A stretch of 64,000 bases of DNA from the NCBI GenBank assembly GCA_963699755.1, contig CAVOVB010000003.1:608001-672000 (forward strand), in the 5' to 3' direction. A program made the position numbers and the translations under genes. This stretch comes from an uncultured delta proteobacterium. GTDB lineage: Bacteria; Myxococcota_A; Polyangia; Polyangiales; Houyiibacteriaceae. Positions within the stretch are counted from its first letter, which is position 1; the number at the start of each line of letters is the position of its first letter. Shown here piece after piece: positions 13,807-54,745 of the stretch. The notes beneath the pieces are model-generated. The model did not search any database, was not told the DNA's origin, and saw only the letters and a list, made by a program, of their open reading frames with translations.

Positions 13807-13815
13807 GGACGAATC

Positions 13816-14085
13816 ATGAAACGAATCATTTCGAGTTTTATCTCACAAGTGCTTGTTTTCATTGCGCTAAATTCAGCGATGTTCCTACTCGCTGGGACGG
13901 TGCAGGCCCAGGACACACCGAGCCCGGAGACGACCTACGACTTCGATGACGACCTGGTGACCGGCGACCTGGTGCGACCTGACGGCGAGCAATTGATCGT
14001 GCGACGCCGCGGGCGTCGGGCGTCTCTAATTCAGATTCGAGAGCATTTTATTCCCGAGATGCTGAAATCTGTGGAAGATTTGTAA
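13816..14085 (+). CDS. gltF: Gliding motility small exported protein GltF (CglF)-like
   Basis: Signal peptide, then YDFDDDLVTGDLVRPDG...SLIQIREHFIPEMLKSVEDL, the CglF/GltF signature. Confidence 0.82.
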   Translation: MKRIISSFISQVLVFIALNSAMFLLAGTVQAQDTPSPETTYDFDDDLVTGDLVRPDGEQLIVRRRGRRASLIQIREHFIPEMLKSVEDL

Positions 14086-14097
14086 TGGGGGATCCGG

Positions 14098-16128: not shown

Positions 16129-16337
16129 TCGCCCCGCCAGAGAGCAAAGAAGCGAGATTTCCCGCCGATATCCCTTCTTTCCAGGGCCTGCGCCCACGTA
16201 CAGCGCGGCGCTCCTGGTCTGAAACTGGCCAAAAAGCATGAAACAGCTGAAAAAAGAGCTGTGTTTACGGTTGTTCGCGACCAGACAAATGCTGTAGGAT
16301 TGAAGTGCTTGTGAATTTCCAAGCCTAGGAGGCAAGC

Positions 16338-37596: not shown

Positions 37597-37621
37597 ATCG
37601 AGCCCCGCGTGACGGGCAGCG

Positions 37622-39658
37622 TCAGTCTTGCACCGAACCCGGAAGCTGAACGACGACGCCGGGCGAGGTTTCGAGCGGCCGCACCGTGATCGGGTCGCTG
37701 CTGAAATTCTCGCCCGCGTCGGGGTGCCGGGCCGTAATCCAAACCGAACCTGCGGGGACCCCCCGCAGCCGAAATACGCCGCGAGCGTCGCTGAGTGCTG
37801 CTCGGTCCCATCGTGGTGGGTCGCCCCAGGTGACCTCTGCGCCCGGCACCCGGTCGCTGACTGCGTCCAACACCTGGCCCTCGATCGAGCCACCGGGTTT
37901 CAGGCGAACCCGGTCGAGCTCCTGCGGCTGGTCGACGTAACGCGGCGGCTCGAGCACCACACGCTGCGTTTGCGTTTCGTACTCGGGATGAGAGAACGAC
38001 ACCTCGTAGGTCCCGGTCGGCGCACGCCGAATCACGAAGCTGCCGTCGCTTCGGGTCGTGGTCTCGTGCTTTACAGGCCCGTCGAGCCCAACCCGAACGT
38101 CCGGAAGTCCGTCGCCGGTCCAGTCATCCACCACCTCGCCGAGGAGCGTCACCCCGGCCGTCATCACGACTCGAACTTCGTCGATGCTCTCGACAAGGGC
38201 AATCCGTGCAGAGCTAAACGCCGGATGCTCGGCGCCGAGCTCGAACGGTGGCTCGGGGAGGGCCGGCACCGAAAACGTTCCATCGGCATCGGATTTCGCG
38301 GTCCGTTGAATCGGAGTCGCTGGGCTCTTCGAGGTGACGGTCAAAATCGCGCCGCCCACGCCCAAGCCGCGCTCGTCGACCACGCGCCCACGCAGCGTAT
38401 AGAGCGTGCTCGCCAATGCCAGCTCGACGGTGACCAGCGCGTCCTCGCCGATCTCCACGGTTTCACGCGCGGGTGGAAGATCATACGGGAGGGCGGTGAC
38501 GGTGACTTCGTCCCGAACGCCTCGAAACGAGAACCAGCCGTCGGTCGCCGTCACCGAGATTCGGGGAATGCGCTCGCTGTCGCCTTGAAGCTCGACTGGG
38601 ATTCCCTCGAGCCCGTCTCCCCGCTCGTCCACGACCCGGCCCGAGAGCTCTGCCCCCGGTCGCATCACGAGCTCGAGCTCCGAGCGCGCGGCTCCGGCCT
38701 TCAGCTGGAGCCTTGCGGATTCCGCTGGTGCGAAGTCGTCGTGGCTTGCAACGATTCGGTACGGTCCAGGCTGGAGATTGCTCAGACGAAAACGACCGTC
38801 GGCGCCGGTCTCAGTCTGCCGGAGGAATGCAAGCGCTCCGCCAACACCAGCCGAGATCGGCGGCACAGGTCCCGAAGTCACCCCCAGTGAGTCACCGGCG
38901 CTTAGACCCGCGCCGGGCCGCTGTCCCTCCCCGAAGGCTCGCACCGTAGCCGCCTCCACGGGGAAACCCCGCTCATCGACGACCCGACCAGCAATCGTCG
39001 ATCCGCGCACGAGGCGAACCGTCATCGACGGATCAGACGCGCCGTGCCGCAAGGGACCAGCCGCGACGTATCCTTCCGCCTCGACGTACAAGCTCTGCTC
39101 GTCGCCGACGACCCCATCGAGCTCAAATCGCCCGCGCGCATCGCTTCGCGTGCGCCGAGTGTGCAGCCCGACCATCCCCGAGGCCAAGGTGATTTCGGCG
39201 CCTAGGATGGCCCGACCCGTTTGCGCGTCGATGACCTGACCCGCGACCATCCAGCCTGGCGCCAGCTGCACTCCGAAGGCCCGTCTTGTGCCCGCATCAA
39301 GGATTAGCCCTTCGACGGGCGGTGCGACGAGCGCCCCCTTGGAGACCCGGAGCTCGTAGATCCCCGCAGGGATATCAGGCCAATGAAACCGCCCATCGGC
39401 GCCGCTTCGAACCGAGCGCGCCGGCCAAAAGCCGCTACCGGCGAGCGACACCAGCGCCCCTTCGAGTGGAGCCCCGCGCTCGTCGAAGATTCGCCCCGAC
39501 ACAGTCGCCGATCCCAGGTCGAGCCCCGAGGACGAGCGGGCCCCGGGGCGGACGCCGTTCGGCGCAGCTGAGGCGATCTCCCTTTTTGGCCCGTAGGTGC
39601 CTGGAATTACGAAAGTCCCGAGCACCAAGAGCCCGGTGATCGCGCCCGCCACTCGCAT
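37622..39658 (-). CDS. Exported protein with tandem carboxypeptidase-regulatory-like (Ig-like) repeats
   Basis: About six GRVVDERG.P+.GA.V...T..DG.F....+..G.Y units after an N-terminal hydrophobic segment. Confidence 0.82.
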   Translation of the reverse strand: MRVAGAITGLLVLGTFVIPGTYGPKREIASAAPNGVRPGARSSSGLDLGSATVSGRIFDERGAPLEGALVSLAGSGFWPARSVRSGADGRFHWPDIPAGIYELRVSKGALVAPPVEGLILDAGTRRAFGVQLAPGWMVAGQVIDAQTGRAILGAEITLASGMVGLHTRRTRSDARGRFELDGVVGDEQSLYVEAEGYVAAGPLRHGASDPSMTVRLVRGSTIAGRVVDERGFPVEAATVRAFGEGQRPGAGLSAGDSLGVTSGPVPPISAGVGGALAFLRQTETGADGRFRLSNLQPGPYRIVASHDDFAPAESARLQLKAGAARSELELVMRPGAELSGRVVDERGDGLEGIPVELQGDSERIPRISVTATDGWFSFRGVRDEVTVTALPYDLPPARETVEIGEDALVTVELALASTLYTLRGRVVDERGLGVGGAILTVTSKSPATPIQRTAKSDADGTFSVPALPEPPFELGAEHPAFSSARIALVESIDEVRVVMTAGVTLLGEVVDDWTGDGLPDVRVGLDGPVKHETTTRSDGSFVIRRAPTGTYEVSFSHPEYETQTQRVVLEPPRYVDQPQELDRVRLKPGGSIEGQVLDAVSDRVPGAEVTWGDPPRWDRAALSDARGVFRLRGVPAGSVWITARHPDAGENFSSDPITVRPLETSPGVVVQLPGSVQD

Positions 39659-41588: not shown

Positions 41589-42125
41589 ATGAGTATGAGG
41601 TCCCCAATTTCGATTCTCGCCTTGTTCGCTGCCCTCGTCGCTTGCGAGCGCGGTGCGCCGGCTCCCAAGGCCGCCGAGCACGATCATTCCCAGCACGACC
41701 ACTCCCAACACCAGGCAGCTGCCGAGCCCGCCGCCGGTCGCGAGAAGCCGGACGAACCCGCTGGCCCCAAGATCGAGACTGGCTCCTTCCTCTTGGCGGT
41801 CGCTCCGTCGGGGGGGGGCTACCGGATCGGCAAGGCAGGCGAGGTCGAGATCGCGCTCGAGAGCCGGGGCCAATGGCACGTCAACCAGGAGTACCCGATC
41901 CGGGTCGACCTGGAGGCCGCCCCAGGCGTCACGCTCACGAAGAACGAGCTCGTCAAAGACGACGCAAAGGAGTTTGGCGAGCAAAAGGTCCGCTTCCTCG
42001 CCGCGGTGGAGCCCTCGGCTGCAGGCGAGCACGAGCTGACCTGCGATGTTTCCTTTGCCATGTGCACCGAAGAAAACTGTATCCTCGAGAGGCGAACGGT
42101 GGCGATGCAACTCAAGGTGGAGTGA
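41589..42125 (+). CDS. Lipoprotein with His-rich linker and DsbD-N-like Ig domain
   Basis: Lipobox LVAC; EHDHSQHDHSQH; WHVNQEYP; C-terminal FAMCTEENC Cys pair. Confidence 0.65.
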   Translation: MSMRSPISILALFAALVACERGAPAPKAAEHDHSQHDHSQHQAAAEPAAGREKPDEPAGPKIETGSFLLAVAPSGGGYRIGKAGEVEIALESRGQWHVNQEYPIRVDLEAAPGVTLTKNELVKDDAKEFGEQKVRFLAAVEPSAAGEHELTCDVSFAMCTEENCILERRTVAMQLKVE

Positions 42126-42126
42126 G

Positions 42127-44376
42127 ATGAGCGAGGGGGGACTCAAGGCTGCGCTGGAGACGATCCGCGGGGAGGTGAAAACGCGGTTCGACGCGCAGAA
42201 GCGAGTGCTCTCGTTTCGAGAGTATCTGGATCTCGTAGCAGACAACCCTCGGCGTTATACGCGCGACGCGAGCCGGTACCTCAAGGATTGCCTGGACTTT
42301 TTCGGCACGTACGAAGTCGAGCGTCCGACCGTGAACCGCAAGCGATGGAGGCTCTTTGACCTCGAGTTCAGGCAAGAGAGCGGCGGCCACCAGGCCGAGC
42401 TCAGGCTCCGAGACCGTCTCGCAGGGCAGGAAGCCGCGCAGGAGTCGTTCTATCGAATCCTCGACGGCTTCGAGCGGGAAGGCCGCGCCAACCGCCTCGT
42501 CTTGCTCCACGGTCCCAACGGCAGCGCCAAGTCGACCTTTGCCACTTGCCTGATGCGCGGGCTCGAAGCCTACTCCGACACCGACGATGGGGCGCTCTAT
42601 CGCTTCTCGTGGGTTTTCCCGCGAGCGCGCGAGGGTGCGGGCATCGGCTTCACGACCTCATCGGACGAGATCGGCACAGGCGAATCGTTCGCGCACCTTC
42701 CCGAAGAGCGGATCATCGTCAAGCTCCAGAGCTCGGTGCGAGAGCATCCGCTCCTCTTGCTGCCTCGTGACGTGCGACAGCGATTGATCGCGAGCGTGTA
42801 CGAGTCGAGGGGGTTGTCGGAGGCGGCGCCCGACTGGGTGTGGACCGGTCAGCTTGCGCGGAAGAATCAACAGATTTTTCAGGCGCTCCTGACCGCGTAC
42901 CGCGGTGACCTCGACCGAGTCCTCGCTCACATCCAAGTCGAGCGATTCTACATCTCGCGACGCTACCGGGTCGGCGCCGTCACCATCGGCCCGCAGATGT
43001 CCGTCGATGCCTCGGAGCGTCAGATCACCGCGGACCACTCAATCGAATCGCTCCCGGCTTCCTTGAGCGCGCTCACGCTGTTCGAGCCCTATGGCGAGCT
43101 GGTCGATGCGTCGGGCGGCATCGTCGAGTTCAGCGACCTGCTCAAGCGTCCGCTCGAAGCCTGGAAGTACCTCCTGCTCGCGATCGAGAACGGCGAGGTT
43201 TCGCTACAAATGTCGAATCTGCCGATCAACGCCGTGATGATAGCAAGCTCGAACGAGCTTCATCTGAGCGCGTTTCGCCAGCACCCCGAGTTTAACTCCT
43301 TCCGCGGCCGCATCGTTCGCATTCGCATGGCCTATCTTCTCGACGTGCACCGCGAGCGTGAAATCTACGACGGACAAATCGTGCCGCAAATCCCCAAGCA
43401 CGTGGCGCCTCACACCACTTACGTGGCGGCCCTATGGGCGGTGCTCACGCGTCTTCGGCGGCCGGATGCCTCGCAGTTTACCGACAGCGAGCTCGGCACC
43501 CTCGCCGCGTCCCTGACCCCCTTGGAAAAGGCCGACCTCTTGGCCGACGGTCTGCTGCCTGCGCGCCTGGAGTCTGATCAAATGAATATTCTTGCCGGCG
43601 GAATCGCCGAGGTGGAGGCCCAAGGCGCCGCATCCTCGGACTACGAGGGTATCAACGGGGCCTCGCCACGAGAGATTCGGATGCTCCTGCTCGACGCCGC
43701 CGCTGGCTTCGAGGAGACCTGCGTTTCGCCGGTGAGCTTCTTGAACCGCCTTGCCGAGTTCTGTGAACGCGACGACTACGACTTTCTCAAGGAGAAGGCC
43801 GACGGTCAATATCGAGATCACCGCTCGTTCGTCGACATGGTCAAAGAGCGATGGCTCGACATCGTCGAGGGCGAGCTTCGCGCGGCCAGCGGCCTCATCG
43901 ACGAGAGCAGCCACCTCCAGCTGTTCGATCGCTATGTAACCCAGGTTTCGCACTGGGTGAAAAAGGAGCGGGTCTTCAACCCGGTGACGGGCAGAGACGA
44001 AGAAGCGGACGTCGATTTGATGGCCAGCGTCGAGAAGAAGCTCGGCGCCGGCGACGCGCCGGCGTTTCGAAACGAGCTCTTGGGCGCTTTTGCCAACTGG
44101 GCGATCGACCATCCCGAGCAGGAGGTCGACTATGAATCACTCTTCCCGCGCTACATCGAGCAGCTTCGCCAGGCTTACTTCGATGAGCGGCGAGGGCAGG
44201 TCGGCGAGATCGGTGAGGCGATCGTTGCACTCACGGAGGACGACGAAACGCTCGACGAGGAGCAGCGGGAAGCCGCCCAACAAGCCCTGCAGGTCCTCAT
44301 CGGTGTCTATGGCTACGAACGCTCGAGTGCCAAGGTCGCACTCGGTGCCCTGGTCGACGCCCGCTATCGCGACTGA
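42127..44376 (+). CDS. PrkA/YeaG-family AAA+ serine protein kinase-like protein
   Basis: VLSFREYLDL, Walker A LHGPNGSAKST, GIVEFSDLLKRP, YEGINGASPRE. Confidence 0.85.
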   Translation: MSEGGLKAALETIRGEVKTRFDAQKRVLSFREYLDLVADNPRRYTRDASRYLKDCLDFFGTYEVERPTVNRKRWRLFDLEFRQESGGHQAELRLRDRLAGQEAAQESFYRILDGFEREGRANRLVLLHGPNGSAKSTFATCLMRGLEAYSDTDDGALYRFSWVFPRAREGAGIGFTTSSDEIGTGESFAHLPEERIIVKLQSSVREHPLLLLPRDVRQRLIASVYESRGLSEAAPDWVWTGQLARKNQQIFQALLTAYRGDLDRVLAHIQVERFYISRRYRVGAVTIGPQMSVDASERQITADHSIESLPASLSALTLFEPYGELVDASGGIVEFSDLLKRPLEAWKYLLLAIENGEVSLQMSNLPINAVMIASSNELHLSAFRQHPEFNSFRGRIVRIRMAYLLDVHREREIYDGQIVPQIPKHVAPHTTYVAALWAVLTRLRRPDASQFTDSELGTLAASLTPLEKADLLADGLLPARLESDQMNILAGGIAEVEAQGAASSDYEGINGASPREIRMLLLDAAAGFEETCVSPVSFLNRLAEFCERDDYDFLKEKADGQYRDHRSFVDMVKERWLDIVEGELRAASGLIDESSHLQLFDRYVTQVSHWVKKERVFNPVTGRDEEADVDLMASVEKKLGAGDAPAFRNELLGAFANWAIDHPEQEVDYESLFPRYIEQLRQAYFDERRGQVGEIGEAIVALTEDDETLDEEQREAAQQALQVLIGVYGYERSSAKVALGALVDARYRD

Positions 44377-44516: not shown

Positions 44517-44924
44517 ATGAGGCTCAAGAACCTATTGTCTGTGATGGTTCTATCGGTGCTTCTTGCTGCGCTCGGGTCTTGCGGTCCCGGTGCTGGTTCG
44601 GAGGGGGGAGACGTCCTTCGCTTGGTCAATCCCTTGAACGCCCAAATCTCGGTCACGGTCGGCTTCCCAGACGGCTCGACGGAGACAGTTGCGCTTCCCA
44701 CTTCAGGCCTTGCGCCAGAGCGCATCTTGTATACGCACTATGTCTTTGGAGACATCTACACGTTTGACGCCGTTGCCCCCGGGGTCGACCCGGCTGTGAC
44801 GACTCGCTGCGCCGTCACGCAGCTAGCGACCATGACCGGCGCCGCGGATGTGCAGTTCTACGTGGAAACCGGCACGACGTTCATCACGGTCGAGTGCGAC
44901 GGCGCCGCTCTCGTGGAGCAATAG
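44517..44924 (+). CDS. Hypothetical lipoprotein
   Basis: AGGAGG RBS; signal peptide with LGSC lipobox; two further Cys. Confidence 0.7.
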   Translation: MRLKNLLSVMVLSVLLAALGSCGPGAGSEGGDVLRLVNPLNAQISVTVGFPDGSTETVALPTSGLAPERILYTHYVFGDIYTFDAVAPGVDPAVTTRCAVTQLATMTGAADVQFYVETGTTFITVECDGAALVEQ

Positions 44925-44934
44925 CGAGCCTCGG

Positions 44935-45912
44935 CTAGACCAGGAACTTACCGCTTCGCAGGCGCTGTGCTTCCATCTTCTCGAGCTCTCGCGAGCCGGA
45001 GATCACGACGTTCGGGTCGGGAACGAAATCGAGGCTGTCGTCCATGCGCTCGTAGGGAGCGGAATTCAAGATGAGCTTGATGGCGTTCAGCCGCGCCTGG
45101 TGCTTGTCGTTCGAGCGAATGATCTTCCAGGGCGCGTGCGTCGTATGAGTCCGCTTGAGCATCTCGTATTTCTCGTTGGTGAACTCGTCCCAGCGTTCTT
45201 GTGCTTGGACATCGACCTCACTCAGCTTCCACTGACGAAGCGGGTCGGCCTTGCGACGCTCGAAGCGCCGTTTCTGCTCTTCCTTCGTCACGCTGAAGTA
45301 GAGCTTGATCAGGACGGTGCCCTGACGCACGAGGTCCTTCTCGAACCCGGTGACGCCGCGCATGAAGTTCTTGTATTCCTTTTCACTGCAGAACCCGAAT
45401 ACCGGCTCCACCATCGCGCGGTTGTACCAGCTCCGGTCGAAGAGAACGACCTCACCGGCACGAGGAAAGTGCTGAACGTACTTCTGAAAGAACCATTGGG
45501 TGCGTTGGTGTTCGGTGGGTTTTCCGAGCGCGACGACGCGATAGTGTTTCTCGTTCATGTAGCGCGTGACCCGGCGGATGGTTCCGCCCTTTCCTGCGGC
45601 GTCGCGCCCTTCGAACAAGATGATCATCCGAGTGCCGCTCTCTTCGAGATACTGCTGCATCTTGATGAGCTCGGCCTGATACGGCTTGAGGCTCTCTTCA
45701 CGGAGATAGCGGCGAAGCGCCTTCGCCTTCATGGATTCGGCGGTCAGTTCCTCCTCCGAGGCTTCCGTCGTCTCCTCGAGCGACTCGACCTCCTGCTGAA
45801 GCGCGGCTGCCGCCTCTTCGCGCTTGACGTTCGCCTCGCGGGCTGTGGGCATCGCCTCCGCGCGGTCGTGGGCCTCTGCAGCGGTTTCTTGGTTCGTCTG
45901 TTCCTCGTCCAT
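44935..45912 (-). CDS. ppk2: Polyphosphate kinase 2 (single domain)
   Basis: FEGRDAAGKGG Walker A, FDRSWYNRA Walker B, DPLRQWKLS and APW motifs; own GAGGAG RBS before ATG 45912. Confidence 0.93.
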   Translation of the reverse strand: MDEEQTNQETAAEAHDRAEAMPTAREANVKREEAAAALQQEVESLEETTEASEEELTAESMKAKALRRYLREESLKPYQAELIKMQQYLEESGTRMIILFEGRDAAGKGGTIRRVTRYMNEKHYRVVALGKPTEHQRTQWFFQKYVQHFPRAGEVVLFDRSWYNRAMVEPVFGFCSEKEYKNFMRGVTGFEKDLVRQGTVLIKLYFSVTKEEQKRRFERRKADPLRQWKLSEVDVQAQERWDEFTNEKYEMLKRTHTTHAPWKIIRSNDKHQARLNAIKLILNSAPYERMDDSLDFVPDPNVVISGSRELEKMEAQRLRSGKFLV

Positions 45913-46797
45913 GATGCTCCTCGAGGTCGAGTGGTTAGGGCCGTTCGCCTGCGCTGAAAACGCTCGTGCCTTTTTCTCCTGTTTTTCGGAGGAAACCGGC
46001 TGCGCTTTCGAAGGGACTCCGTGGAAATAGCACCCCCGTCCGCCGAACGCGTAGTCGTAGGTCCCGTAGGTCCAGTTGTAATCCTTGCCGAACGGCGCGA
46101 CCAAGTCGCGGAGCTCTTGCTGAGAGTAGACGCGCAAGGTGCTGACGATCGCGTCCCAGGCTCCGGCGACCAGGCCTAGAGGCGTGAGCCAAGTCCATGT
46201 GGCTTTGGCGAGCCGGTCTCGGGGCGAGAGTAGCGGAGTCGCAAAGAGCGAAGGGATTCCGATTGGAATCAGCGGAAAGGCGCCCCGCAGATCTCGCTCG
46301 AAGGATTCGGAGATGAAGATCGGCGCTTGACTATGGACCGCGTCGCGGAGGATGGCGCCCGCGAGCTCCGGTCGGAAGTGATGAAACGCGTTGATGATCA
46401 CTCGAGCGCGCCCATCCGACAGGGACTTGGGAATCGATGTTGCGTCGACCGGTTCGGCGATGAAATCGATGCAGTCCGGGCGCTGCTCCCGGGCGTGGGT
46501 CCAGATGGAAACGCGAGGGAACAGATCGGTGAGCAGAAAGCGCGGCGCGCTCATCCCGAGTCGCTCGGCCTCCTGGCTCAAGATCATTGCGGGGCCCGCA
46601 GCTCCGGCGCAAAGGTCCAACACCTCGCGCGTTCCAGCGGCCGCGAGAAAGCCGTCGATCACCGGTACGAGGGGTCGAAGGAAGCCACCCCAGTCGAGCG
46701 AGCGGCTCAGCGTTTCGACAATCGTGTCGCGCAAGGTTTCGGGCACCCAGTCGCGATCATTGAATTCGAATAGCTGGGTTCTCGGAAGAAGGGGCAT
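44935..46797 (-). CDS. Class I SAM-dependent methyltransferase-like protein reading in frame into PPK2
   Basis: QLFEFND, VLDLCAGAAGP (motif I), LTDLFP, VDAT, NAFHHF and WDAIVSTLRVYS; no stop codon before the ppk2 start. Confidence 0.7.
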   Translation of the reverse strand: MPLLPRTQLFEFNDRDWVPETLRDTIVETLSRSLDWGGFLRPLVPVIDGFLAAAGTREVLDLCAGAAGPAMILSQEAERLGMSAPRFLLTDLFPRVSIWTHAREQRPDCIDFIAEPVDATSIPKSLSDGRARVIINAFHHFRPELAGAILRDAVHSQAPIFISESFERDLRGAFPLIPIGIPSLFATPLLSPRDRLAKATWTWLTPLGLVAGAWDAIVSTLRVYSQQELRDLVAPFGKDYNWTYGTYDYAFGGRGCYFHGVPSKAQPVSSEKQEKKARAFSAQANGPNHSTSRSIMDEEQTNQETAAEAHDRAEAMPTAREANVKREEAAAALQQEVESLEETTEASEEELTAESMKAKALRRYLREESLKPYQAELIKMQQYLEESGTRMIILFEGRDAAGKGGTIRRVTRYMNEKHYRVVALGKPTEHQRTQWFFQKYVQHFPRAGEVVLFDRSWYNRAMVEPVFGFCSEKEYKNFMRGVTGFEKDLVRQGTVLIKLYFSVTKEEQKRRFERRKADPLRQWKLSEVDVQAQERWDEFTNEKYEMLKRTHTTHAPWKIIRSNDKHQARLNAIKLILNSAPYERMDDSLDFVPDPNVVISGSRELEKMEAQRLRSGKFLV

Positions 46798-46819
46798 GAC
46801 GGTTTCGGGCGTGGGTCGA

Positions 46820-48412
46820 TCACTTCGTGAGGTCGAAGTCCAGGCTCTTTCGTTCACCCGGCCGAAGACGGATCGTCTGAGTCTTGAACGGTCTCTCCTG
46901 TCCGACCCCGATCTTGTATCGGCCCGCCTTCAGTGGCTGGTCCTTCAGGGGCGCTGCGCCGCGGAGCTTGCCATCGATCCAGACGTTGCCCCACGGAAAG
47001 ACGACCACGGTGAGTCGCGCCGGACGGGGCAGGGCGGCCGCCGCGGGAGCAATGTCTCGAGCGGAGTCAACGGTTGCCTCTTCCGCGGCGTCGAGCTTGG
47101 TTTCGGAGACGTCTCGTTTGCGCTCCTCGGGGCCGGGTAGGGGGGGTGCTCGGGGTTTCGGATCGGCGGTCGGAGGAGGAGCGAGCGCGCCCCTTGTCTC
47201 CGAGCGGGTCTGATCTTCCCTGCGGATCGTTGGCCAAAGTCCGATGGCGCCCGCCGCGCCAACCATGACAAGCAGGAGCCCGACGAGCGCGCGCTGAAAC
47301 GACCGGCGAGCTCCGTTGTTGGCACCCCATCTTTCGGACACAAGCAAGCCGTCCGTCGCAGAGGCGCTCGCTCCGGCGTCGCTCGGTCCTGGATCCGGGC
47401 CGGGGTCGGTGGCGTGCTTCCCGCCGGCCAGAGCGAGCAGGTCTTCGGTGCTGATCCGGTCTTTCGGAGGACGGCTCTCGGCAACGATCCGTCCGAGGTC
47501 TCGGCGCGCACGCGGCGACGGAACGAACTCGTCCAGCAAATCGATCAACTTGGATGCGCTCTCCGGCCGGTCTTCACGGTTCGGCAGGAGTAGGCTTTCG
47601 ATGACTTCGCAGAGCCCAGGAGGAGCAGCGGGTGCAAGGCTGTGAAGCGAGGGATGGTCGCCCGATAGAGTCAACATGATCGTCGCCGGATCGTGGGCGC
47701 CGTCGTAAGGCCGTTGTCCGGCGAGCGCCTCGTAGAGCACCACTCCAAGCGCGAACAGGTCGGCCCGTCCGTCGAGTGGCTCGGCGCGGAGCTGCTCGGG
47801 CGACATATAGGGAATCTTGCCCTTGACTGCGCTCTGCTTGCGTGACGTGCCAGACATTGCCTTGGCAACGCCGAAGTCCGAGAGAAAGACTTCACCGGTG
47901 CGGCTGATGAGCACGTTCGAAGGCGAGACATCGCGATGCACGATCGCGTCCCCGTCCGAATCCTCGATGGCGTTTCCTGGTCGCCTTGAATGCGCATGCT
48001 CCAGGGCGGCCGCGAGGTCGTGACCCAAGAGTGCGACCAATCCGTGCGGCAGACGGACCCCGTCCTGCGCGTCGAGCACGACACGCAGATCCGCTCCGTC
48101 CACCAGCTCAATCGCCATGTACGGCGTCCCTGCAATCTTGCCGAAGTCGATCACGCCAACGATGTTGCTGTGCCGAAGCTTCGCGGCGAGCCGCGCCTCC
48201 CGTTCAAAGAGCCGAATGAAGTCTTCATTGTCGCGGAAGAACGGAAGGACCAGCTTGAGGCAAACATGCTGGGCAAAGCCGCTCGGGCCCCGCCGAATGG
48301 CCTCGTAGGTTTCGGCCATTCCGCCCACGCCAAGCCGACGGACCAGCCGGTACGGCCCGAAATCCTCACCGGCGAGGCTACTCAGGGATGTTTGTGAGCG
48401 CACCTTCGACAT
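46820..48412 (-). CDS. Membrane-anchored Hanks-type Ser/Thr protein kinase with extracytoplasmic PEGA-like domain
   Basis: LGVGGMA, CLK, HRDVSPSN, SDFG, YMSPE and DLFALG; TM helix; C-terminal PWGNVWIDGK..G.AP. Confidence 0.92.
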   Translation of the reverse strand: MSKVRSQTSLSSLAGEDFGPYRLVRRLGVGGMAETYEAIRRGPSGFAQHVCLKLVLPFFRDNEDFIRLFEREARLAAKLRHSNIVGVIDFGKIAGTPYMAIELVDGADLRVVLDAQDGVRLPHGLVALLGHDLAAALEHAHSRRPGNAIEDSDGDAIVHRDVSPSNVLISRTGEVFLSDFGVAKAMSGTSRKQSAVKGKIPYMSPEQLRAEPLDGRADLFALGVVLYEALAGQRPYDGAHDPATIMLTLSGDHPSLHSLAPAAPPGLCEVIESLLLPNREDRPESASKLIDLLDEFVPSPRARRDLGRIVAESRPPKDRISTEDLLALAGGKHATDPGPDPGPSDAGASASATDGLLVSERWGANNGARRSFQRALVGLLLVMVGAAGAIGLWPTIRREDQTRSETRGALAPPPTADPKPRAPPLPGPEERKRDVSETKLDAAEEATVDSARDIAPAAAALPRPARLTVVVFPWGNVWIDGKLRGAAPLKDQPLKAGRYKIGVGQERPFKTQTIRLRPGERKSLDFDLTK

Positions 48413-48472
48413 GGGGTCGACTGGGTGGGCCGATGACCTCCAGGTCAGGACACACGCGCTCTGATGATACGC

Positions 48473-49594
48473 CTAAATTCCCAGCTTGAACAGCTGCGAA
48501 GCCCCTGCGTTCGAAGCCGAGAGGGAACCGCATCTGCCCTGGAACAAGGTCTCTGCCGCCCGCGACAGGGATCGGGGGCCCGGCCCTCCGGCCGGAGATT
48601 TGATCCAGGCGCAGCCTCGCCGGATCCCGTTTCGACTCACGAGTGCGAGGGCGATGGTGTTTGGCGTCGGCGTCGACACGAGGACCAGCATCCGCGCAGG
48701 TAGAACTCTTGCGAGCTTCTGCGCGTCCGCCAGCCAGCGATCCCCCTCGCCGTGCTTCGGGTACTGCAGCCGCAAGACAGGCCTGGTCCGGACCGCGCGA
48801 TCGAATCCGTCGTCGACGTGAAGCAGGCTCACGTCCGTTCCGATCTTCACCGAGTGCACGCGCCCGCGGTGCTGTCCGTCGCATTCGACTTGGACGCTGT
48901 ACTCGCCGGTCAAGAGCTCATCGGTCTCCAAGGGGGTGGAGCCAAAAAGCACACCGTTGACGCGGACGTCACATCCGGAAGGGCTGCTGTCGACGAGCAG
49001 TCCACCCACGTTCTTACGACCGGCCGCTAGCGCCTGATGGTAGAGCGCCAACACAGCCGGCGGATGCATCAGCGCTGCAGGACTTGCACGCGGCACTAGG
49101 CGCGCACAGTCGTCTGAGTACGCGACGGCGCGAGGTCGCTCCGCCGATTCGAGTAGCGCTCGCACCATGTAGAGGCAGGTGTCGAGAACCCGCTGCGCTC
49201 TGGGGCTCTCTCTATTGAGCTCCGCGGCAGCGGTCCGGGAAAGCCGTTCCGCGCGCGCGAGACGATCGAGCGCCGATGCCTGGTCACCGTGTGCAAGATG
49301 GTGGACACCCGCATGGGAATCTCGAAACCAACGCTCGATCTCCTTGTCGCTGACTTCGACCGCAACCGTGGAGCTTTCGCGCTCGAAGCGCATAGCTGCG
49401 TCCTCAGACCGCCACACCTGCCGGTCGTGCCCCTCCAGCTCTCGACGAAGCTCTGCAACAATTCGTTCCATGTAGGACGGCATCTCACCGTTCGTCACTG
49501 GAACGACCGCCCAGTCGTTGGTCTCCGCGGCCGCTGGCGAGAGCAAAGCCAACGAACTGAGGGTCGCGACTGCAATCGGCAATGCTCGTGTCAT
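48473..49594 (-). CDS. Exported PEGA-domain protein
   Basis: Signal peptide ending AAA-ET; helical region; PEGA (LLVDSSPSGCDVRVNGVLFGSTP...GEYSVQVEC); 4-bp overlap with the upstream gene. Confidence 0.75.
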   Translation of the reverse strand: MTRALPIAVATLSSLALLSPAAAETNDWAVVPVTNGEMPSYMERIVAELRRELEGHDRQVWRSEDAAMRFERESSTVAVEVSDKEIERWFRDSHAGVHHLAHGDQASALDRLARAERLSRTAAAELNRESPRAQRVLDTCLYMVRALLESAERPRAVAYSDDCARLVPRASPAALMHPPAVLALYHQALAAGRKNVGGLLVDSSPSGCDVRVNGVLFGSTPLETDELLTGEYSVQVECDGQHRGRVHSVKIGTDVSLLHVDDGFDRAVRTRPVLRLQYPKHGEGDRWLADAQKLARVLPARMLVLVSTPTPNTIALALVSRNGIRRGCAWIKSPAGGPGPRSLSRAAETLFQGRCGSLSASNAGASQLFKLGI

Positions 49595-50190
49595 CGAGCT
49601 TGGCTCCTGGCGAACCAGAGGTCGATCTTGACGAAGCTGCCTTCGTCGTAGGAGGCGCCCCGGAAATTCACGGCGATTTGGTTCAGCTCATGCGAGACCT
49701 CTGCGCTGGCAACCTCGACGTTGCTGGCCGTCTGATCCACCCCTGCCGCAACGAGCACCAGGTCGTCTTCTGGGCTCACGATCTGAAACAGGTACCCATC
49801 GAAGTCAGCGCTTGGGAATCGCCCCGCGCCTGCCACGCTGGAGAAGTCGAAGATCAGGCTGGCGCGGTCGAGATCGATCTCGAGGCCGGGGTTTGGGCTC
49901 GTGGCACAATGAGCACCGAGAGAGCTCACATCCACCGAAGAGAACTCCAGCCCGTCGCCGACTTTGGTCTGCAATGCCTTGGAGCCAGCGCCGTCGCAGA
50001 GGGTCGAGTGTCGGGATAGCTTCAAGTCGGCCCCAGCCAGGCTTGCGGCTGCACTGTCCGGATCGTAGTGAAAATGGCCTGGATCGATCGAAAAGGTGTG
50101 TGCGTCTCCGCAGCCTATCAGAAATCCAGAAGCGCTAACCAGAGCCAGCGCGGCGATGCGACGAGTCGCATGGATGGTCGTTCTTGTCAT
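49591..50190 (-). CDS. Hypothetical lipoprotein
   Basis: GGAGG RBS; ATG 50190; signal peptide with LIGC lipobox; beta-rich mature domain. Confidence 0.72.
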   Translation of the reverse strand: MTRTTIHATRRIAALALVSASGFLIGCGDAHTFSIDPGHFHYDPDSAAASLAGADLKLSRHSTLCDGAGSKALQTKVGDGLEFSSVDVSSLGAHCATSPNPGLEIDLDRASLIFDFSSVAGAGRFPSADFDGYLFQIVSPEDDLVLVAAGVDQTASNVEVASAEVSHELNQIAVNFRGASYDEGSFVKIDLWFARSQAR

Positions 50191-50236
50191 GTTGGTGTCC
50201 TCCCGGTATGTCGTTGTGGCGGCCTGCGGTTCCCAG

Positions 50237-50253
50237 TGCATCGAGCGTGCCAA
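50237..50253 (-). promoter_or_regulatory. Sigma54 (-24/-12) promoter of the lipoprotein-PEGA-kinase operon
   Basis: Minus strand TTGGCACGCTCGATGCA (TGGCACG-N4-ATGCA, GG-N10-GC). Confidence 0.75.
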
Positions 50254-50306
50254 TCGAGAAAGGCATTCGTTTTCCGCAAAGCGCAGAGCTTGCGGCAGCG
50301 GATCGA

Positions 50307-50342
50307 TGACGTTCGTCGTCGAAATCCTGACGACGGCCGTCA
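50307..50342. promoter_or_regulatory. Tandem palindromic upstream activator sites
   Basis: TGACG-TTCGT-CGTCG (50307-50321) and TGACG-ACGGC-CGTCA (50328-50342), 21 bp apart. Confidence 0.65.
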
Positions 50343-50376
50343 TTCGAGCGGACATCGAAGGTGCAGGAGACCGGCG

Positions 50377-51999
50377 TTAGACGCGGTTCTTGAACTTTTC
50401 GGGGTCGATCGCGAGCGTCGCCATCCGGCTGATCAGTCCGGTGCGCGGAACGGAAAGCATTCGGGCGGTGCGCGCGACGATGCCCCCGCAGGCCGTGAGA
50501 GCGTCCTCGATGATTCCTTTTTCGACGGCGTCGAGGCCTTCTTTTTGCTCCCCAAGCTGCTTCCAGCGGGCTTGGACTTCGTTGCTCGCCGAGCCGGCGC
50601 TGGGGTGCACCGAGGGAGGGCTGATGGAGCCGCGTAGAGAATGCTCGCCGTCGAGGTCCAAGTGGCGTGCCTCGATCACCGGGTCCGCGGATTCGCTCGC
50701 CCGAACGCGATTCCTGGCTCGCTCCAGCACCGCTTCGAGCTCGCGTATATTTCCCCCCCAATGAAGGTGGGGCGCCTGGAGCAGCTCACGAGCGTTGCCG
50801 TCGAGCTCCCAGTCGGTCTGTCCATCGGTGCGGCTGAGGTAACGCATGGCGATGCTCGGGATGTCGCTGCGCCGATCGCGCAGTGGTGGCAGCACGATGG
50901 GCACGGTGGCCAGGCGATAATAAAGGTCCTGCCGAAAGCGCTGGTCGGCGATGGCCTGCGACATGTCGCCGTTGGTCACCGAGATCAGGCGCACGTCGGC
51001 TGTCTTCGGCTCGCGGCCCTGATAGCCAAGCGGCCGGTACGAGCCGAACTGGGTGAAATCGAGGAGCAGCTGCTGCGCATGGCGAGGCAGGTTCAGCACC
51101 TCGTCGAGGATGAGCGTCCCCTCGTGTGCGTACTCGACCAGTCCCATGCGCCTGGAGACCGCGCCTGAAAACGCGCCTCGCTCATGCCCAAAAAGCTCCG
51201 AGGTGATCGTGTTCAGGTCATCCGCCAGACCGAGCGTCGCCCGAACGATCGGGTCGCGGTTGCTCGTGCGAGCAAACGCGGTCGCGAGCTGGGTCTTGCC
51301 TGTCCCCGATTCACCCAAGACCATGATCGACGCCTGGCTTCCGAGGGCGGCGCGGAGCTCTTCGCGGATCGCTGCCATGCTGTCACCGGCGAGGAGGTCG
51401 TCGAGACCGAGGTAGTGGTCGTTTCGGTCTTTGGCGCGCTCGACACGCAAATCTTCTTTGGTGGCCTCGATCAGCGTCTGCTGCGCGATCATGCCTCCGA
51501 GAAGGGAACCGACGCATTGGACGAAGTCGAGGACGGTGTCCTGCTCTCCTTCGTTTCCCGGAAACTCCAAATACATCACCCCGACCAGACTACGGCCTCG
51601 CCCCGAGGACGTGGGGTGCGACCAAAGCGGGACGGCGGCAAACGAGCCGCTCTGCGCGTAGGGTACGGGGCCGGCGACGGTCTTGAGCTCCCGCTGCACT
51701 CGGCTCAGCATTGCGGTGACGTGCTCTGCAAGCACGGCGGGCGGCACCCCGCGAAACCCTGCGGTGCGCGAACGGTGCATCGGCCCGCCGCCGCCCTTGG
51801 TCTCGAGCGTGCTCCAGGCGGAGGTCGCGCCAAGCTGAACACACAAGGCTTCGAGCGTCTCCTCGATGAAGCGGCCGCCATGAAGGCCGGTCACGACCGA
51901 CGCCACAATTTCACGCATTCGCGGCCAGGGATCTCGGTTCTCGACTATCGGCATCGGCCGTTGCGAGAGTAACTGGTTGAGCGTCTCGCGACTAGGCAT
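50377..51999 (-). CDS. Sigma54-dependent transcriptional activator (bEBP) with N-terminal GAF-like domain
   Basis: GESGTGKT, SELFGHERGAFSGA, LILDEV, FRQDLYYRL and WGGNIREL; Fis-type HTH; no receiver domain. Confidence 0.92.
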   Translation of the reverse strand: MPSRETLNQLLSQRPMPIVENRDPWPRMREIVASVVTGLHGGRFIEETLEALCVQLGATSAWSTLETKGGGGPMHRSRTAGFRGVPPAVLAEHVTAMLSRVQRELKTVAGPVPYAQSGSFAAVPLWSHPTSSGRGRSLVGVMYLEFPGNEGEQDTVLDFVQCVGSLLGGMIAQQTLIEATKEDLRVERAKDRNDHYLGLDDLLAGDSMAAIREELRAALGSQASIMVLGESGTGKTQLATAFARTSNRDPIVRATLGLADDLNTITSELFGHERGAFSGAVSRRMGLVEYAHEGTLILDEVLNLPRHAQQLLLDFTQFGSYRPLGYQGREPKTADVRLISVTNGDMSQAIADQRFRQDLYYRLATVPIVLPPLRDRRSDIPSIAMRYLSRTDGQTDWELDGNARELLQAPHLHWGGNIRELEAVLERARNRVRASESADPVIEARHLDLDGEHSLRGSISPPSVHPSAGSASNEVQARWKQLGEQKEGLDAVEKGIIEDALTACGGIVARTARMLSVPRTGLISRMATLAIDPEKFKNRV

Positions 52000-52555
52000 T
52001 GCGCAAGGTGGTTGAAGGCTTCTGTGTCTGAGGCCCGAGGACACGAACCATGATCACGAGTTGTGCCTTCGTTTTGACGCCCAGCTTGCGCATGGATCCC
52101 CTCAAGAGTGCGGACACCCGCGAAGGGCTGATCTTCAGCCGGTAGCCTGTCACCTTGCTGCTCTCGCCAAGCGCTGCGCCCATCGCGACTTGGTACTCAC
52201 GAGCCGTGAGCCCGGCGGCGCAGCTTCCTTTGACGTCATTGAGCTTCACCAAGACGATTCGTCTGCCGTTGGCGTCAAACCAGTCGACCAGCTTCATTCG
52301 TCCTCGGACCAGACCCTCCCAGAGAAGAAGGGCGCGTTCGGCGTCGATCGCACCCAGGTCTCGACGCGCCTCGTCGAGACTTCGGGCGGCGTCGCGGAGC
52401 ATGTCCGGGCTTGCCATGCCGTCGACGCCGCCCATCGCCCCCAAGGGCTCGGTGCATCCTCTTGGCTCCGACCCCTCGCTCGCTGGCCCTGTGGCGTCCC
52501 ACTCGGTCTCGAGGATCGGAGTGAAGGCAGCTCGTGTGGCATGGGCGCTCGTCAT
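51992..52555 (-). CDS. LuxR-type HTH transcriptional regulator
   Basis: C-terminal LTAREYQVAMGAALGESSK..GYRLKIS...V..LL...MRKLGVKTKAQL; stop codon overlaps the bEBP start region. Confidence 0.8.
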   Translation of the reverse strand: MTSAHATRAAFTPILETEWDATGPASEGSEPRGCTEPLGAMGGVDGMASPDMLRDAARSLDEARRDLGAIDAERALLLWEGLVRGRMKLVDWFDANGRRIVLVKLNDVKGSCAAGLTAREYQVAMGAALGESSKVTGYRLKISPSRVSALLRGSMRKLGVKTKAQLVIMVRVLGPQTQKPSTTLRNA

Positions 52556-52571
52556 CGTGTTCGACCGCAGG

Positions 52572-52588
52572 TGCAGGCGGCGTGCCAG
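52572..52588 (-). promoter_or_regulatory. Sigma54 (-24/-12) promoter of the luxR-bEBP operon
   Basis: Minus strand CTGGCACGCCGCCTGCA (TGGCACG-N4-CTGCA, GG-N10-GC). Confidence 0.7.
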
Positions 52589-52636
52589 GCGAAAAGCACT
52601 GTGATTCCGGTGAGCCCGGCGCGGGCTAGACGAAAA

Positions 52637-52674
52637 TGACGACGGCCGTCATCGAAATCCGACGCCTGGCGTCA
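52637..52674. promoter_or_regulatory. Tandem palindromic upstream activator sites
   Basis: TGACG-ACGGC-CGTCA (52637-52651) and CGACG-CCTGG-CGTCA (52660-52674), 23 bp apart; first site identical to 50328-50342. Confidence 0.65.
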
Positions 52675-52716
52675 TGTTCGAGGGCTCCAGATCGGAGCAA
52701 GCGGCCGGGAATTCGC

Positions 52717-53187
52717 TTAGCGCGATCGTTCCGAGGCACGCCTGCGCTCGCGCCGCGTGGCCGCGTCCGCAGCGGCCTGCCGATCGCTCTCGCTTTCCGC
52801 CAGCAGCGGCGGAACAGGGCAGGGCCTTCCGTCCTCACCGAGGTTGACGAAGGTCGCCCGCGCATCGGCGCAGAGCGACCGCGCCCCGGTCGCCGCGTGC
52901 TCCACTTCGACCCGAACCGCGATTTCCATCGAGCTCGTGAACGCCGCATTGAGGTGCGCCGTGAGGCGAACCACGTCGCCGACTCGAATTGGCGCCTTGA
53001 ACTCCAGCGCATCGACCCGCGCCGTGACGCAGACCCGGCCGCAATGCCGCTTCGCAGCGATGGAGCTGCAGATGTCGATCCAACTCATGATCACGCCACC
53101 AAATGCGGTGCCGATCGCGTTGGTGTGCTGCGGCAAGATGAGCTCGGTCATTTCCGTGAACGACTCGGAAGGGGGTTTCGCATCCAT
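52717..53187 (-). CDS. Acyl-CoA thioesterase (hotdog fold, YciA-like)
   Basis: LPQHTNAIGTAFGGVIMSWID, VTARVD, FKAPIRVGD and FTSSMEI. Confidence 0.92.
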   Translation of the reverse strand: MDAKPPSESFTEMTELILPQHTNAIGTAFGGVIMSWIDICSSIAAKRHCGRVCVTARVDALEFKAPIRVGDVVRLTAHLNAAFTSSMEIAVRVEVEHAATGARSLCADARATFVNLGEDGRPCPVPPLLAESESDRQAAADAATRRERRRASERSR

Positions 53188-53236
53188 TGGCGGAGCATAA
53201 GGTGTACGGATGGTGGATTAAAGGCATAATCCAAAC

Positions 53237-54745
53237 GTGCAGCGGCTTTTTACACGTGAGGAGTCACGCAAGCTGGATCGCGTCGCCATCGACGAGATTG
53301 GCGTCGTGAGCCTGGTGTTGATGGAGAATGCCGGGCGCGGGGCGAGCGATGCGATTTGCGATCTCTTTGCCGAGCGGCTCGGCCGTGTCGTCCTGGTCGG
53401 CGGGCCAGGGCAAAATGGCGGCGACGCCTGGGTGATCGCGAGGCGCTTGGCGCTGCTCGGCCATCCGCCGCTCGCTCTGTTGATTGGAGAGGCATCGCGC
53501 CTACGTGGTGACGCGCAGACCAACTGGGCGCTGCTTGGCGCGCTCGGCATCGAGACCGTCGAGGTATCGCCTGCCGACGCGGAACCGATCGCCGAGCACC
53601 TCGGGGATGCAACGCTGATCGTCGATGGACTCTTCGGAACAGGGCTCGATCGCCCGATCACCGGCGGCTACGCGCAGGCGATTGCAGCCATGGATGCAGC
53701 GCCTGTCCCCTTGGCTTCTTTGGATCTTCCGAGCGGCCTCGACGCGGACACCGGCGCGATCTTTGGCATCGCGCCCCATGCGTCGCTGACGATCACATTC
53801 GCCGGGCACAAGCGCGGGCTTCACCAGTACCCCGGCGTCGAGCATGCGGGCGCGGTGCGTGTCGCCGACATCGGGATCCCGATCATGTTTGCACCTGCCG
53901 CGAGCCTTTGGACAGCCGCAGACCTTGCCGCGCTCATCGCGCCCCGCAAGGCCGATGCGTACAAGGGCAGCAACGGACACCTTCTGGTCATCGGTGGCGC
54001 GCCGGGAAAGACCGGAGCTGCCGTGCTTGCAGGTCGCGCGGCGTTTCGCACCGGGGCAGGGCTCGTCACGATTGGCGCCCGACCGGATTCCCGCGCCGCG
54101 CTCGAACAAAAAGTCATCGAGCTGATGACGACGGCACTTCCTGAGCAAGCCAATGAAGCTTCAGTGCGACGCCTCTGCGAGGGGAAGCGCGCCGTCGTGC
54201 TTGGGCCGGGCATGGGTTTGGACCCGCTTGCAAGGAGCTGGACGCGGGCATTTGTCCAGCACGCTCCGGTCCCCACTGTGGTTGATGCAGACGGTCTCAC
54301 CCATCTTGCCGCCGATGGGCTCGATTCGCTCATGGGCGCGGCTGGCCCAAGGGTGCTCACGCCCCATCCGGGGGAAGCCGCGCGCCTGCTCGGGCGGTCG
54401 ACTTCGGAAGTTCAAGCCGACCGATATGGAGCAGCCGAAGCGCTGGCGGACAAGTCGGGGCAGGTCGTGATCTTGAAAGGCGCCCGCAGCATCGTGGCCG
54501 GCGGTGGTGAGCTTCGCGTTTGCGCGGAAGGCACGGCGGCGCTTGGCGTTGCGGGGACGGGCGACGTGCTGAGCGGGATCGTGGGCGCGCTCACGATGAG
54601 CATCTCGCCGCTCGACGCAGCGATCGGCGGCACGCTCCTACACGCGCTGGCAGGTGAGGCCGCAGCCACCGGCGACCGCGGCCTGATCGCCTCCGAAGTG
54701 GCGGACGCGGTGCCAGGCATCGTGGCCGAGCAGCTCGAGCTCTGA
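53237..54745 (+). CDS. nnr: Bifunctional NAD(P)H-hydrate epimerase/dehydratase
   Basis: LMENAG, GQNGGDA, DGLFGTG and DLPSG (YjeF_N); GPGMG, DADG, TPHPGEA and GTGDVLSG (dehydratase). Confidence 0.94.
   Translation: MQRLFTREESRKLDRVAIDEIGVVSLVLMENAGRGASDAICDLFAERLGRVVLVGGPGQNGGDAWVIARRLALLGHPPLALLIGEASRLRGDAQTNWALLGALGIETVEVSPADAEPIAEHLGDATLIVDGLFGTGLDRPITGGYAQAIAAMDAAPVPLASLDLPSGLDADTGAIFGIAPHASLTITFAGHKRGLHQYPGVEHAGAVRVADIGIPIMFAPAASLWTAADLAALIAPRKADAYKGSNGHLLVIGGAPGKTGAAVLAGRAAFRTGAGLVTIGARPDSRAALEQKVIELMTTALPEQANEASVRRLCEGKRAVVLGPGMGLDPLARSWTRAFVQHAPVPTVVDADGLTHLAADGLDSLMGAAGPRVLTPHPGEAARLLGRSTSEVQADRYGAAEALADKSGQVVILKGARSIVAGGGELRVCAEGTAALGVAGTGDVLSGIVGALTMSISPLDAAIGGTLLHALAGEAAATGDRGLIASEVADAVPGIVAEQLEL

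Follow-up and report, generated by a model that had tools for sequence, protein, structure and literature searches.

A genus-limited, predicted sigma-54 regulon of GAF-type activators, PEGA-ectodomain Ser/Thr kinases and a lipoprotein family in an uncultured member of the Myxococcota

Proteins that activate transcription from sigma-54 promoters are usually switched by histidine kinases, small ligands or partner proteins. The present analysis concerns such an activator, which is encoded together with a lipoprotein, an exported PEGA-domain protein and a membrane Ser/Thr kinase in a five-gene cassette, found in a 64,000-nucleotide (nt) stretch of DNA from an uncultured member of the Myxococcota (the window; C3:608001-672000 of a 5.35 Mb genome with 62.5% G+C in 11 contigs). 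Several described systems share parts with this cassette. PexR of Myxococcus xanthus, which its GAF domain keeps inactive, binds repeats of dyad symmetry located upstream of sigma-54 promoters (excerpts of PMC12754779), while in Vibrio VasH acts with RpoN to promote transcription of type VI secretion system (T6SS) genes, and PpkA2 of Vibrio alginolyticus phosphorylates the regulator VtsR (excerpts of PMC10482370). The MasABK operon of M. xanthus encodes a membrane protein, a lipoprotein and a protein kinase, which interact in two-hybrid assays and affect a sigma-54/PilR-dependent gene (excerpts of PMC3546991). A described system that combines an activator, a Ser/Thr kinase and a PEGA protein or lipoprotein was not found in open-access papers (PMC) and bioRxiv preprints. 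As detailed below, there is good support for a real, well-delimited and genus-limited sigma-54 regulon around the cassette, controlled by a familiar kind of gene switch. The DNA runs that contain the locus derive from marine, estuary and other sediments.

Predicted promoters and paired dyads

The five genes of the cassette are co-oriented on the minus strand, with a 4HBT thioesterase gene (53187..52717) on one side and a PPK2 gene (46857..44935) on the other. The longest open reading frames (ORFs) are given in window positions:

52555..51992, minus strand: LuxR/GerE-type helix-turn-helix (HTH) regulator
52044..50377, minus strand: bacterial enhancer-binding protein (bEBP, the activator), GAF (predicted fold)-AAA+-HTH_8
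50190..49591, minus strand: lipoprotein with lipobox LIGC
49594..48473, minus strand: exported PEGA-domain protein with signal peptide, its start overlapping the lipoprotein stop by 4 nt
48412..46820, minus strand: Hanks-type Ser/Thr kinase with one transmembrane segment and a C-terminal PEGA-like domain

Conservation of the LuxR frame among orthologs begins only near residue 53, and its true start is therefore probably M47 (52417) or M52 (52402); the activator probably starts at M16 (51999). None of the five proteins has an NCBIfam equivalog, all matches falling far under the cut-off. These are the five genes that had been named in a sequence-only reading of the window, and the further observation made there, that the cassette contains neither a histidine kinase nor a receiver domain, agrees with the lack of a Response_reg match for the activator in Pfam and with the GAF-like nature of its N-terminal domain.

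Ahead of the luxR-bEBP genes and of the lipoprotein gene lie two predicted sigma-54 promoters, both of the form TGGCACG-N5-TGCA, each of which is preceded by two inverted repeats (dyads):

52587..52572, minus strand: luxR-side -24/-12 promoter TGGCACGCCGCCTGCA, predicted transcription start site (TSS) ~52561
50252..50237, minus strand: lipoprotein-side -24/-12 promoter TGGCACGCTCGATGCA, predicted TSS ~50226
52674..52660, minus strand: luxR-bEBP enhancer, distal dyad TGACGCCAGGCGTCG (TGACG-N5-CGTCG, one mismatch to TGACG-N5-CGTCA)
52651..52637, minus strand: luxR-bEBP enhancer, proximal dyad TGACGGCCGTCGTCA (perfect; within the 16-mer discussed below)
50342..50328, minus strand: lipoprotein-operon enhancer, distal dyad TGACGGCCGTCGTCA (perfect)
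50321..50307, minus strand: lipoprotein-operon enhancer, proximal dyad CGACGACGAACGTCA (CGACG-N5-CGTCA, one mismatch)

The arrangement of these elements is very similar on the two sides. The dyads start 86 and 63 nt upstream of the T of TGGCAC before luxR and 89 and 68 nt upstream of it before the lipoprotein gene, with centre-to-centre distances of 23 and 21 bp, respectively. A conserved A/T-rich element, GGAATCACAGTGCTTTTCGCC, directly precedes the luxR-side promoter, and the lipoprotein-side transcript would have a leader of 36 nt with GGGAGG ahead of the ATG at 50190. A scan for the sigma-70 consensus over window positions 44800-53300 returned 0 sites, against 0.8 expected. Both promoters stand where the sequence-only reading had placed them, although its ranges were one base too long each; the tandem palindromes that it reported are likewise present, but each pair consists of one perfect site and one with a single mismatch. 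It had also drawn attention to two words shared by the promoter regions. The 16-mer has two copies in the genome, both in these regions, whereas the 9-mer TCGAAATCC is common (46 + 51 copies), is a partly conserved spacer between the dyads, and is ruled out as a signal by itself by its 97 genome copies.

The pairing of tandem dyads with sigma-54 promoters is nearly exclusive at the genome level. A search for TGACG-N5-CGTCA with at most one mismatch per site gave 361 sites (14 exact and 347 with one mismatch), among which only three tandem pairs (sites 15-30 bp apart) occur, against about 0.39 expected from the site density. All three lie 66-89 nt upstream of a perfect TGGCACG-N5-TGCA, a sequence found at 24 sites in the entire genome; the genome-wide scan proposed in the sequence-only reading thus places the pairs above background and at sigma-54 promoters in every case. 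The same association is seen from the promoter side. Strong promoters (TGGCAC[GA]-N5-TGC[AT]) number 53, nearly all of them 0-70 nt ahead of an ORF, and ten are accompanied by a dyad GACG-N5/6-CGTC at -130 to -20, where 0.49 would be expected. For a looser promoter pattern the count is 25/1044 (15 expected), and for a negative control with the wrong -24/-12 spacing it is 13/694 (10 expected).

The third tandem pair (C2:138916-138950) is followed by TGGCACGATCGCTGCA and, 14 nt later, by the gene of a 203-residue lipoprotein that is 37% identical to the cassette lipoprotein. The genes next to it converge on it, and it therefore appears to stand alone. The cassette is thus not self-contained, as had been supposed, because it has this outside target on another contig, paralogous activator/kinase modules elsewhere in the genome, and a half-site in common with the hcp-vgrG promoter in the region of a T6SS-linked activator paralog (see below).

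Both promoters and both dyad pairs, as well as the A/T-rich element before the -24 box, are kept in orthologous intergenic alignments, while the DNA between them drifts, and the gene order thioesterase-luxR-activator-lipoprotein-PEGA-kinase-PPK2 is repeated in two loci of relatives (L025, L027). The synteny and motif comparison suggested by the sequence-only reading therefore bears out its description of the locus. On the luxR side a promoter with dyad is present in 5/5 orthologs with upstream DNA; the proximal dyad is kept in all five, and the distal dyad in three, being degenerate in the other two. The lipoprotein family was surveyed across the genus at 13 distinct loci with upstream DNA (a fourteenth, cut by a contig end, was left out), and every one of these has a sigma-54 promoter 28-81 nt before the ATG. 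In 12 of the 13 there are two N5 dyads, the first beginning 87-89 nt and the second 66-69 nt ahead of the T of TGG; the exception is the paralog P1, with one N6 dyad.

The cassette is decaying in one relative (contig L032), since the activator gene is broken into six out-of-frame pieces (1568-2540) and luxR and PPK2 lack the lipoprotein, PEGA and kinase genes between them. The PPK2 gene is regarded as a flank rather than a member because it is kept in place where the cassette is lost. In the window (44935-46857, minus strand) it is co-oriented and directly 3' of the cassette, and its longest ORF, which has a 38-nt overlap with the kinase stop, includes an N-terminal extension of about 380 residues ahead of the PPK2 domain.

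A further exact TGACG-N5-CGTCA at window positions 37610-37624, within coding DNA and with no sigma-54 promoter nearby, is probably due to chance. The promoter scan also found an identical sigma-54 16-mer, TGGCACGCCTGATGCA, three times within 2 kb (C2:844841, 845438 and 846677), each copy 45-51 nt ahead of a small exported protein, together with similar ..TGATGCA/T promoters at C2:831736, C3:2442, C3:3213, C3:33859, C4:287 and C10:18195, which precede other lipoprotein-like ORFs with 'MRYL.GF'-type signal peptides. There is no dyad at any of them, and from their sequences they look like a second sigma-54 regulon of exported proteins.

The activator, the envelope proteins and the kinase

The activator is a receiver-less enhancer-binding protein of GAF-AAA+-HTH type, with the GAF domain predicted. 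Its AAA+ domain (PF00158, E 8.4e-42) has the Walker A motif GESGTGKT, the Walker B motif LILDEV and an AAA_lid_14 region, its HTH matches HTH_8 (E 1.2e-8), and its best sequence matches in the PDB are FleQ, NifA, LuxO and NtrC1. The sigma-54 contact loop GAFTGA reads GAFSGA (Thr to Ser); among 22 aligned family members F, S, G and the final A are invariant, and the first A is S in eight (GSFSGA). The genome encodes an RpoN, whose DNA-binding domain is recognized with E 1.1e-66. None of the Pfam GAF families matches the activator at E <= 0.01, and the GAF assignment is by fold alone: an AlphaFold (AF2) model of the N-terminal domain (pLDDT 78.4, pTM 0.70, from a 25-row alignment) retrieves the GAF domains of Nlh1 (4g3k, E 9e-6, TM-score 0.76-0.81) and NifA (8jrc, E 8e-4) in Foldseek. 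Within this domain, the loop HRSRT is invariant and of low confidence (flexible) in the model, and is possibly a phospho-acceptor. In the Fis-type HTH, the recognition helix PRTGLISRM varies hardly at all among the activator paralogs.

The activator family is narrowly distributed. The N-terminal 200 residues have 12 representative relatives or clusters among 1.84 billion proteins, and the GAF type occurs in 14 of the 18 genomes sampled from the genus, with only weak matches beyond it, in 5 of 382 further genomes from the phylum sample. The genome has three members, namely the window copy and the paralogs P1 and P2. In a maximum-likelihood tree the window's orthologs form one clade (support 98/99) and the T6SS-linked copy is the first branch (87/95); the order of branching is merely suggested, since the root rests on a single long outgroup branch and on the midpoint. 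These activators appear to have radiated at the level of the genus and to be related to one encoded in a T6SS cluster.

The lipoprotein belongs to a genus-limited family: 38 of 54 other genomes from the genus encode a member, against 0 of 246 genomes from 116 other genera of an order-level sample. Its lipobox occupies residues 24-27, with the G and C invariant in nine aligned members, and the family is marked by a conserved Cys pair and by the motif IFDFSNV..GRFP..FEGY. The predicted structure is a beta-sandwich (pLDDT 75.8), for which Foldseek gave no relative at E <= 1e-3 and a wide VIA-align search gave only generic beta-sandwiches (best Z 4.9); the best score in the ESM Atlas, 0.81, is a lead only. 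The exported PEGA protein (PF08308, E 9.1e-9), which has five invariant Cys, belongs to a Myxococcota-wide set of proteins of about 400 residues, its Atlas neighbours being PEGA clusters of Myxococcota (score 0.97).

The kinase (PF00069, E 3.9e-32) has the beta3 Lys (CLK) and the HRD, DFG and SPE motifs. Its kinase domain (residues 21-283) is followed by a transmembrane segment (~375-395), a Pro/Ala/Glu-rich linker and a PEGA-like ectodomain (~464-530), and the C-terminal 65 residues are PEGA-like by eye, with no Pfam match.

Paralogous modules and the T6SS region

The P1 activator (C1:286.8 kb) is 69% identical to that of the window. Its gene is followed by the promoter TGGCACGCGCGCTGCA with a dyad GACGT-N4-ACGTC, and then by genes for a lipoprotein paralog with 31% identity, a paralogous kinase and a giant DUF11 protein; the PEGA gene is divergent upstream, and there is no luxR. 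Beside this module (L047), at C1:296745 on the minus strand, TGGCACGAACGCTGCT with GACGCACACACGTC 111 nt upstream stands ahead of the gene of a 124-residue exported protein. The resemblance of its dyad to the N6 dyad at the P1 lipoprotein promoter suggests that P1 has a second target.

The P2 activator (C3:149-151 kb, 63% identical) is encoded directly before tssE-tssF-tssG-clpV-fha, in a T6SS cluster that further holds tssM, tagF, tssA, tssC, a VanW gene and a kinase-like gene of 547 residues. The T6SS region as a whole covers approximately C3 100-155 kb (loci L066, L045, L046, L049 and L023), with a VipB-like fragment at L066:1022-2098. A strong sigma-54 promoter, with one GACG-N5-CGTC located 54-64 nt upstream of it, precedes each of three genes or operons in this region, namely hcp-vgrG, the gene of a PG-binding protein, and an operon for a 618-residue PEGA protein and a kinase. 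The latter kinase (C3:102 kb) has the same PEGA ectodomain as the window kinase and is 71% identical to it over the kinase domain. It is likely that there is cross-talk with the hcp-vgrG promoter, since the GACG/CGTC half-site is common to the activator paralogs.

The three activator paralogs of the genome and the three closest kinase paralogs thus occupy the same three regions. Across the genus, the activator is flanked in most loci by a kinase of the cassette-kinase family, in several gene orders and orientations, and these neighbourhoods often include PEGA, lipoprotein or luxR genes. A kinase also adjoins the distant relatives of the activator (43-47% identical) that occur in two further families of the order.

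Elsewhere in the window are a PrkA-type kinase (42046-44376), a 3350-residue TPR-repeat protein (17223-27275, plus strand) and, 5' of the latter, more TPR proteins with an FHA-domain protein (8912-17207, plus strand; FHA protein at 14098-16128).

Proposed mechanism, alternatives and known systems

On this architecture we consider it probable that the activator binds the tandem dyads and thereby activates its own luxR-bEBP operon, the lipoprotein/PEGA/kinase operon and the unlinked lipoprotein paralog. The activator would sit on two GACG-N5-CGTC dyads, the centres of which lie some 108 and 87 nt upstream of the predicted start sites; these dyads would be read by its Fis-type HTH and not by LuxR; the nearly invariant recognition helix fits the half-site that is common to the window, P1 and T6SS promoters. 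Basal expression would be needed first, possibly by read-through from the thioesterase gene, and the upstream promoter would add positive autoregulation to it. The GAF domain would keep the ATPase off until a signal comes, after which the activator would assemble and drive open-complex formation at both promoters, resulting in more activator, more of the lipoprotein/PEGA/kinase module and more of the orphan lipoprotein.

It is conceivable, if somewhat doubtful, that the signal is delivered to the GAF domain by the co-regulated membrane kinase, whose PEGA ectodomain would act with the lipoprotein and the PEGA protein in sensing the envelope. A more general proposal, which we regard as unlikely, is that of a Ser/Thr-kinase counterpart of two-component sigma-54 control, in which each GAF activator paralog would be the substrate of its own PEGA-ectodomain Hanks kinase, and the lipoprotein/PEGA/kinase complex would read envelope state or cell contact into sigma-54 transcription, with positive feedback on both sensor and activator.

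A number of observations weigh against the proposed mechanism. Downstream of the predicted start site on the luxR side, the first ATG of the ORF follows at 7 nt and the conserved start at approximately 145-160 nt, and the leader would therefore be unusual either way. A promoter with dyad is found upstream of the activator in only 7 of 20 loci scanned (the five orthologs and two others, and none of the other 13), so that autoregulation is not a family trait; activation of its own operon, as claimed in the sequence-only reading, has the corresponding architecture in the orthologous group and these two loci only. The P1 site has N6 spacing although the recognition helix is the same, and the near-identical HTHs of the paralogs do not assign a particular paralog to a particular site. 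A fourth, more divergent lipoprotein paralog of the genome has no such promoter or dyad in the 900 nt upstream. With regard to the kinase, the catalytic loop reads HRDVSPSN (window 47890-47920), without the usual Lys of HRDxKxxN, and for this reason kinase activity cannot be taken for granted. In eight aligned family members HRD, S, P and N are invariant, the fourth residue is V, I or L and the seventh is G in one; the HRDxSxxN loop is found in 16 of 39 Hanks-kinase loops of the genome, including those of the three closest paralogs (window, P1 and C3:102 kb). The T6SS cluster, moreover, has a kinase-like gene of its own. Finally, luxR is co-transcribed with the activator in the cassette (a predicted operon), GerE-type HTH dimers recognize short inverted repeats, and the dyad pairs can fold as RNA hairpins (z -1.2 to -2.4), points that are taken up below.

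The most serious alternative, with a substantial if lesser than even chance of being correct, is that the kinase, the PEGA protein and the lipoprotein are outputs only. The GAF domain would then sense a cytoplasmic ligand or metal, as in NifA and PexR, the kinase would have its targets elsewhere (the Fha of the T6SS, or envelope proteins), and there would be no feedback loop. This would accord with the GAF-type activators studied so far, which sense ligands, metals or partner proteins (for example PexR; excerpts of PMC12754779), and with the occurrence of one promoter type at both hcp-vgrG and a PEGA-kinase operon in a T6SS-rich region, the cluster of which encodes an Fha protein; Fha1 of Pseudomonas is acted on by just such a trio of lipoprotein, periplasmic protein and membrane kinase (excerpts of PMC10482370). 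However, the adjacency of activator and kinase is maintained in many gene orders, also where no T6SS gene is near, the paralogs of the two proteins share the same three regions, the T6SS cluster has a kinase candidate of its own, and the GAF domain includes the invariant, Ser/Thr-containing HRSRT loop.

It is considerably less probable, on indirect evidence, that the LuxR-type protein binds the dyads, as a co-activator, repressor or anti-activator, with the bEBP working from other sites or from solution. In addition to the binding habit of GerE-type dimers, this possibility draws on the position of luxR as the first gene of the predicted autoregulated operon, which is conserved in orthologs, and on the different dyad arrangement at P1, the one locus of the genome without an adjacent luxR. 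Dyads of the same half-site are nevertheless present at the lipoprotein-kinase promoter of P1, and they recur at the T6SS promoters, which have an activator paralog as their linked regulator. Furthermore, in both of two other genomes checked (G041 and G064) the activator adjoins a lipoprotein gene with tandem dyads but has no luxR less than 1.5 kb away, the nearest homolog being on another contig; the LuxR family amounts to 1-8 unlinked copies per genome; and the distance and phasing of the dyads relative to the sigma-54 promoter are enhancer-like. The pairing of LuxR and activator put forward in the sequence-only reading is therefore present in the cassette but not in other loci that keep the dyads, and this comparison of loci indicates that LuxR is not an obligate partner.

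That the palindromes are RNA hairpins which terminate or stabilize the upstream transcripts (of the thioesterase and activator genes), rather than protein sites, is highly improbable: the paired dyads do fold at -21 to -25 kcal/mol, and the proximal dyad before luxR, followed by a T-rich run, scores as a weak terminator-like hairpin, but the number of terminator-like structures equals the shuffled expectation (6 versus 6.0), a T run is lacking at the lipoprotein-side pair, the z-scores of folding are modest, the dyads keep a distance to the -24 box that is constant within 3 nt whatever gene lies upstream, and the GACG/CGTC letters are kept across 13 + 5 loci while the spacer is free to vary, so that it is the sequence, and not mere pairing, that is conserved.

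The significance of the proposed activator mechanism lies in an activator family that is tied gene by gene to PEGA-ectodomain Ser/Thr kinases of the membrane and to a lipoprotein family not seen before, under an enhancer definition tight enough for a regulon to be predicted from sequence alone. If the kinase were to control the activator, this would be a tractable case of eukaryote-like kinase input to sigma-54 transcription in Myxococcota, linked also to type VI secretion. Even without the kinase step, the dyad-plus-promoter signature provides a test set for footprinting and reporters, and an annotation marker for uncultured sediment bacteria.

Compared with the known systems, the activator has the same receiver-less, three-domain order as Nlh1 of Aquifex aeolicus, NifA and PexR of M. 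xanthus, and its predicted N-terminal domain superposes on the GAF domains of the first two. It differs from all three in its lineage-specific GAF sequence, its constant kinase neighbour and its predicted targets, which are the lipoprotein/PEGA/kinase operon and its own operon rather than nif, ahpC or katB. P2 is VasH-like by gene position, lying directly before tssE-tssF-tssG-clpV, and the hcp-vgrG promoter has the family half-site; unlike VasH, the window activator lies outside any T6SS cluster, between the thioesterase gene and PPK2, with different predicted targets.

The envelope module has parts similar to those of the TagQ/TagR/TagST-PpkA-Fha1 pathway of the Pseudomonas aeruginosa H1-T6SS, in which an outer-membrane lipoprotein, a periplasmic protein and a membrane Hanks kinase relay an envelope signal (excerpts of PMC10482370). 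Pfam and NCBIfam scans gave no Tag-family match for the lipoprotein or the PEGA protein (PEGA and Pkinase matches only), no direct comparison with Tag proteins having been made. In contrast to Tag-PpkA, the proposed output is transcription via the activator instead of assembly via Fha, and the module itself is predicted to be under sigma-54 control. The likeness to MasABK is one of operon parts list, the protein sizes being different, and PEGA domains, a linked activator and an enhancer are all unmentioned in the excerpts of PMC3546991. The NtrC-type activators likewise combine AAA+ and Fis-type HTH domains with tandem dyad enhancers approximately 80-110 nt upstream of a -24/-12 promoter; unlike these, the cassette dispenses with the receiver domain and the histidine kinase, and has a Ser/Thr kinase in the neighbouring position.

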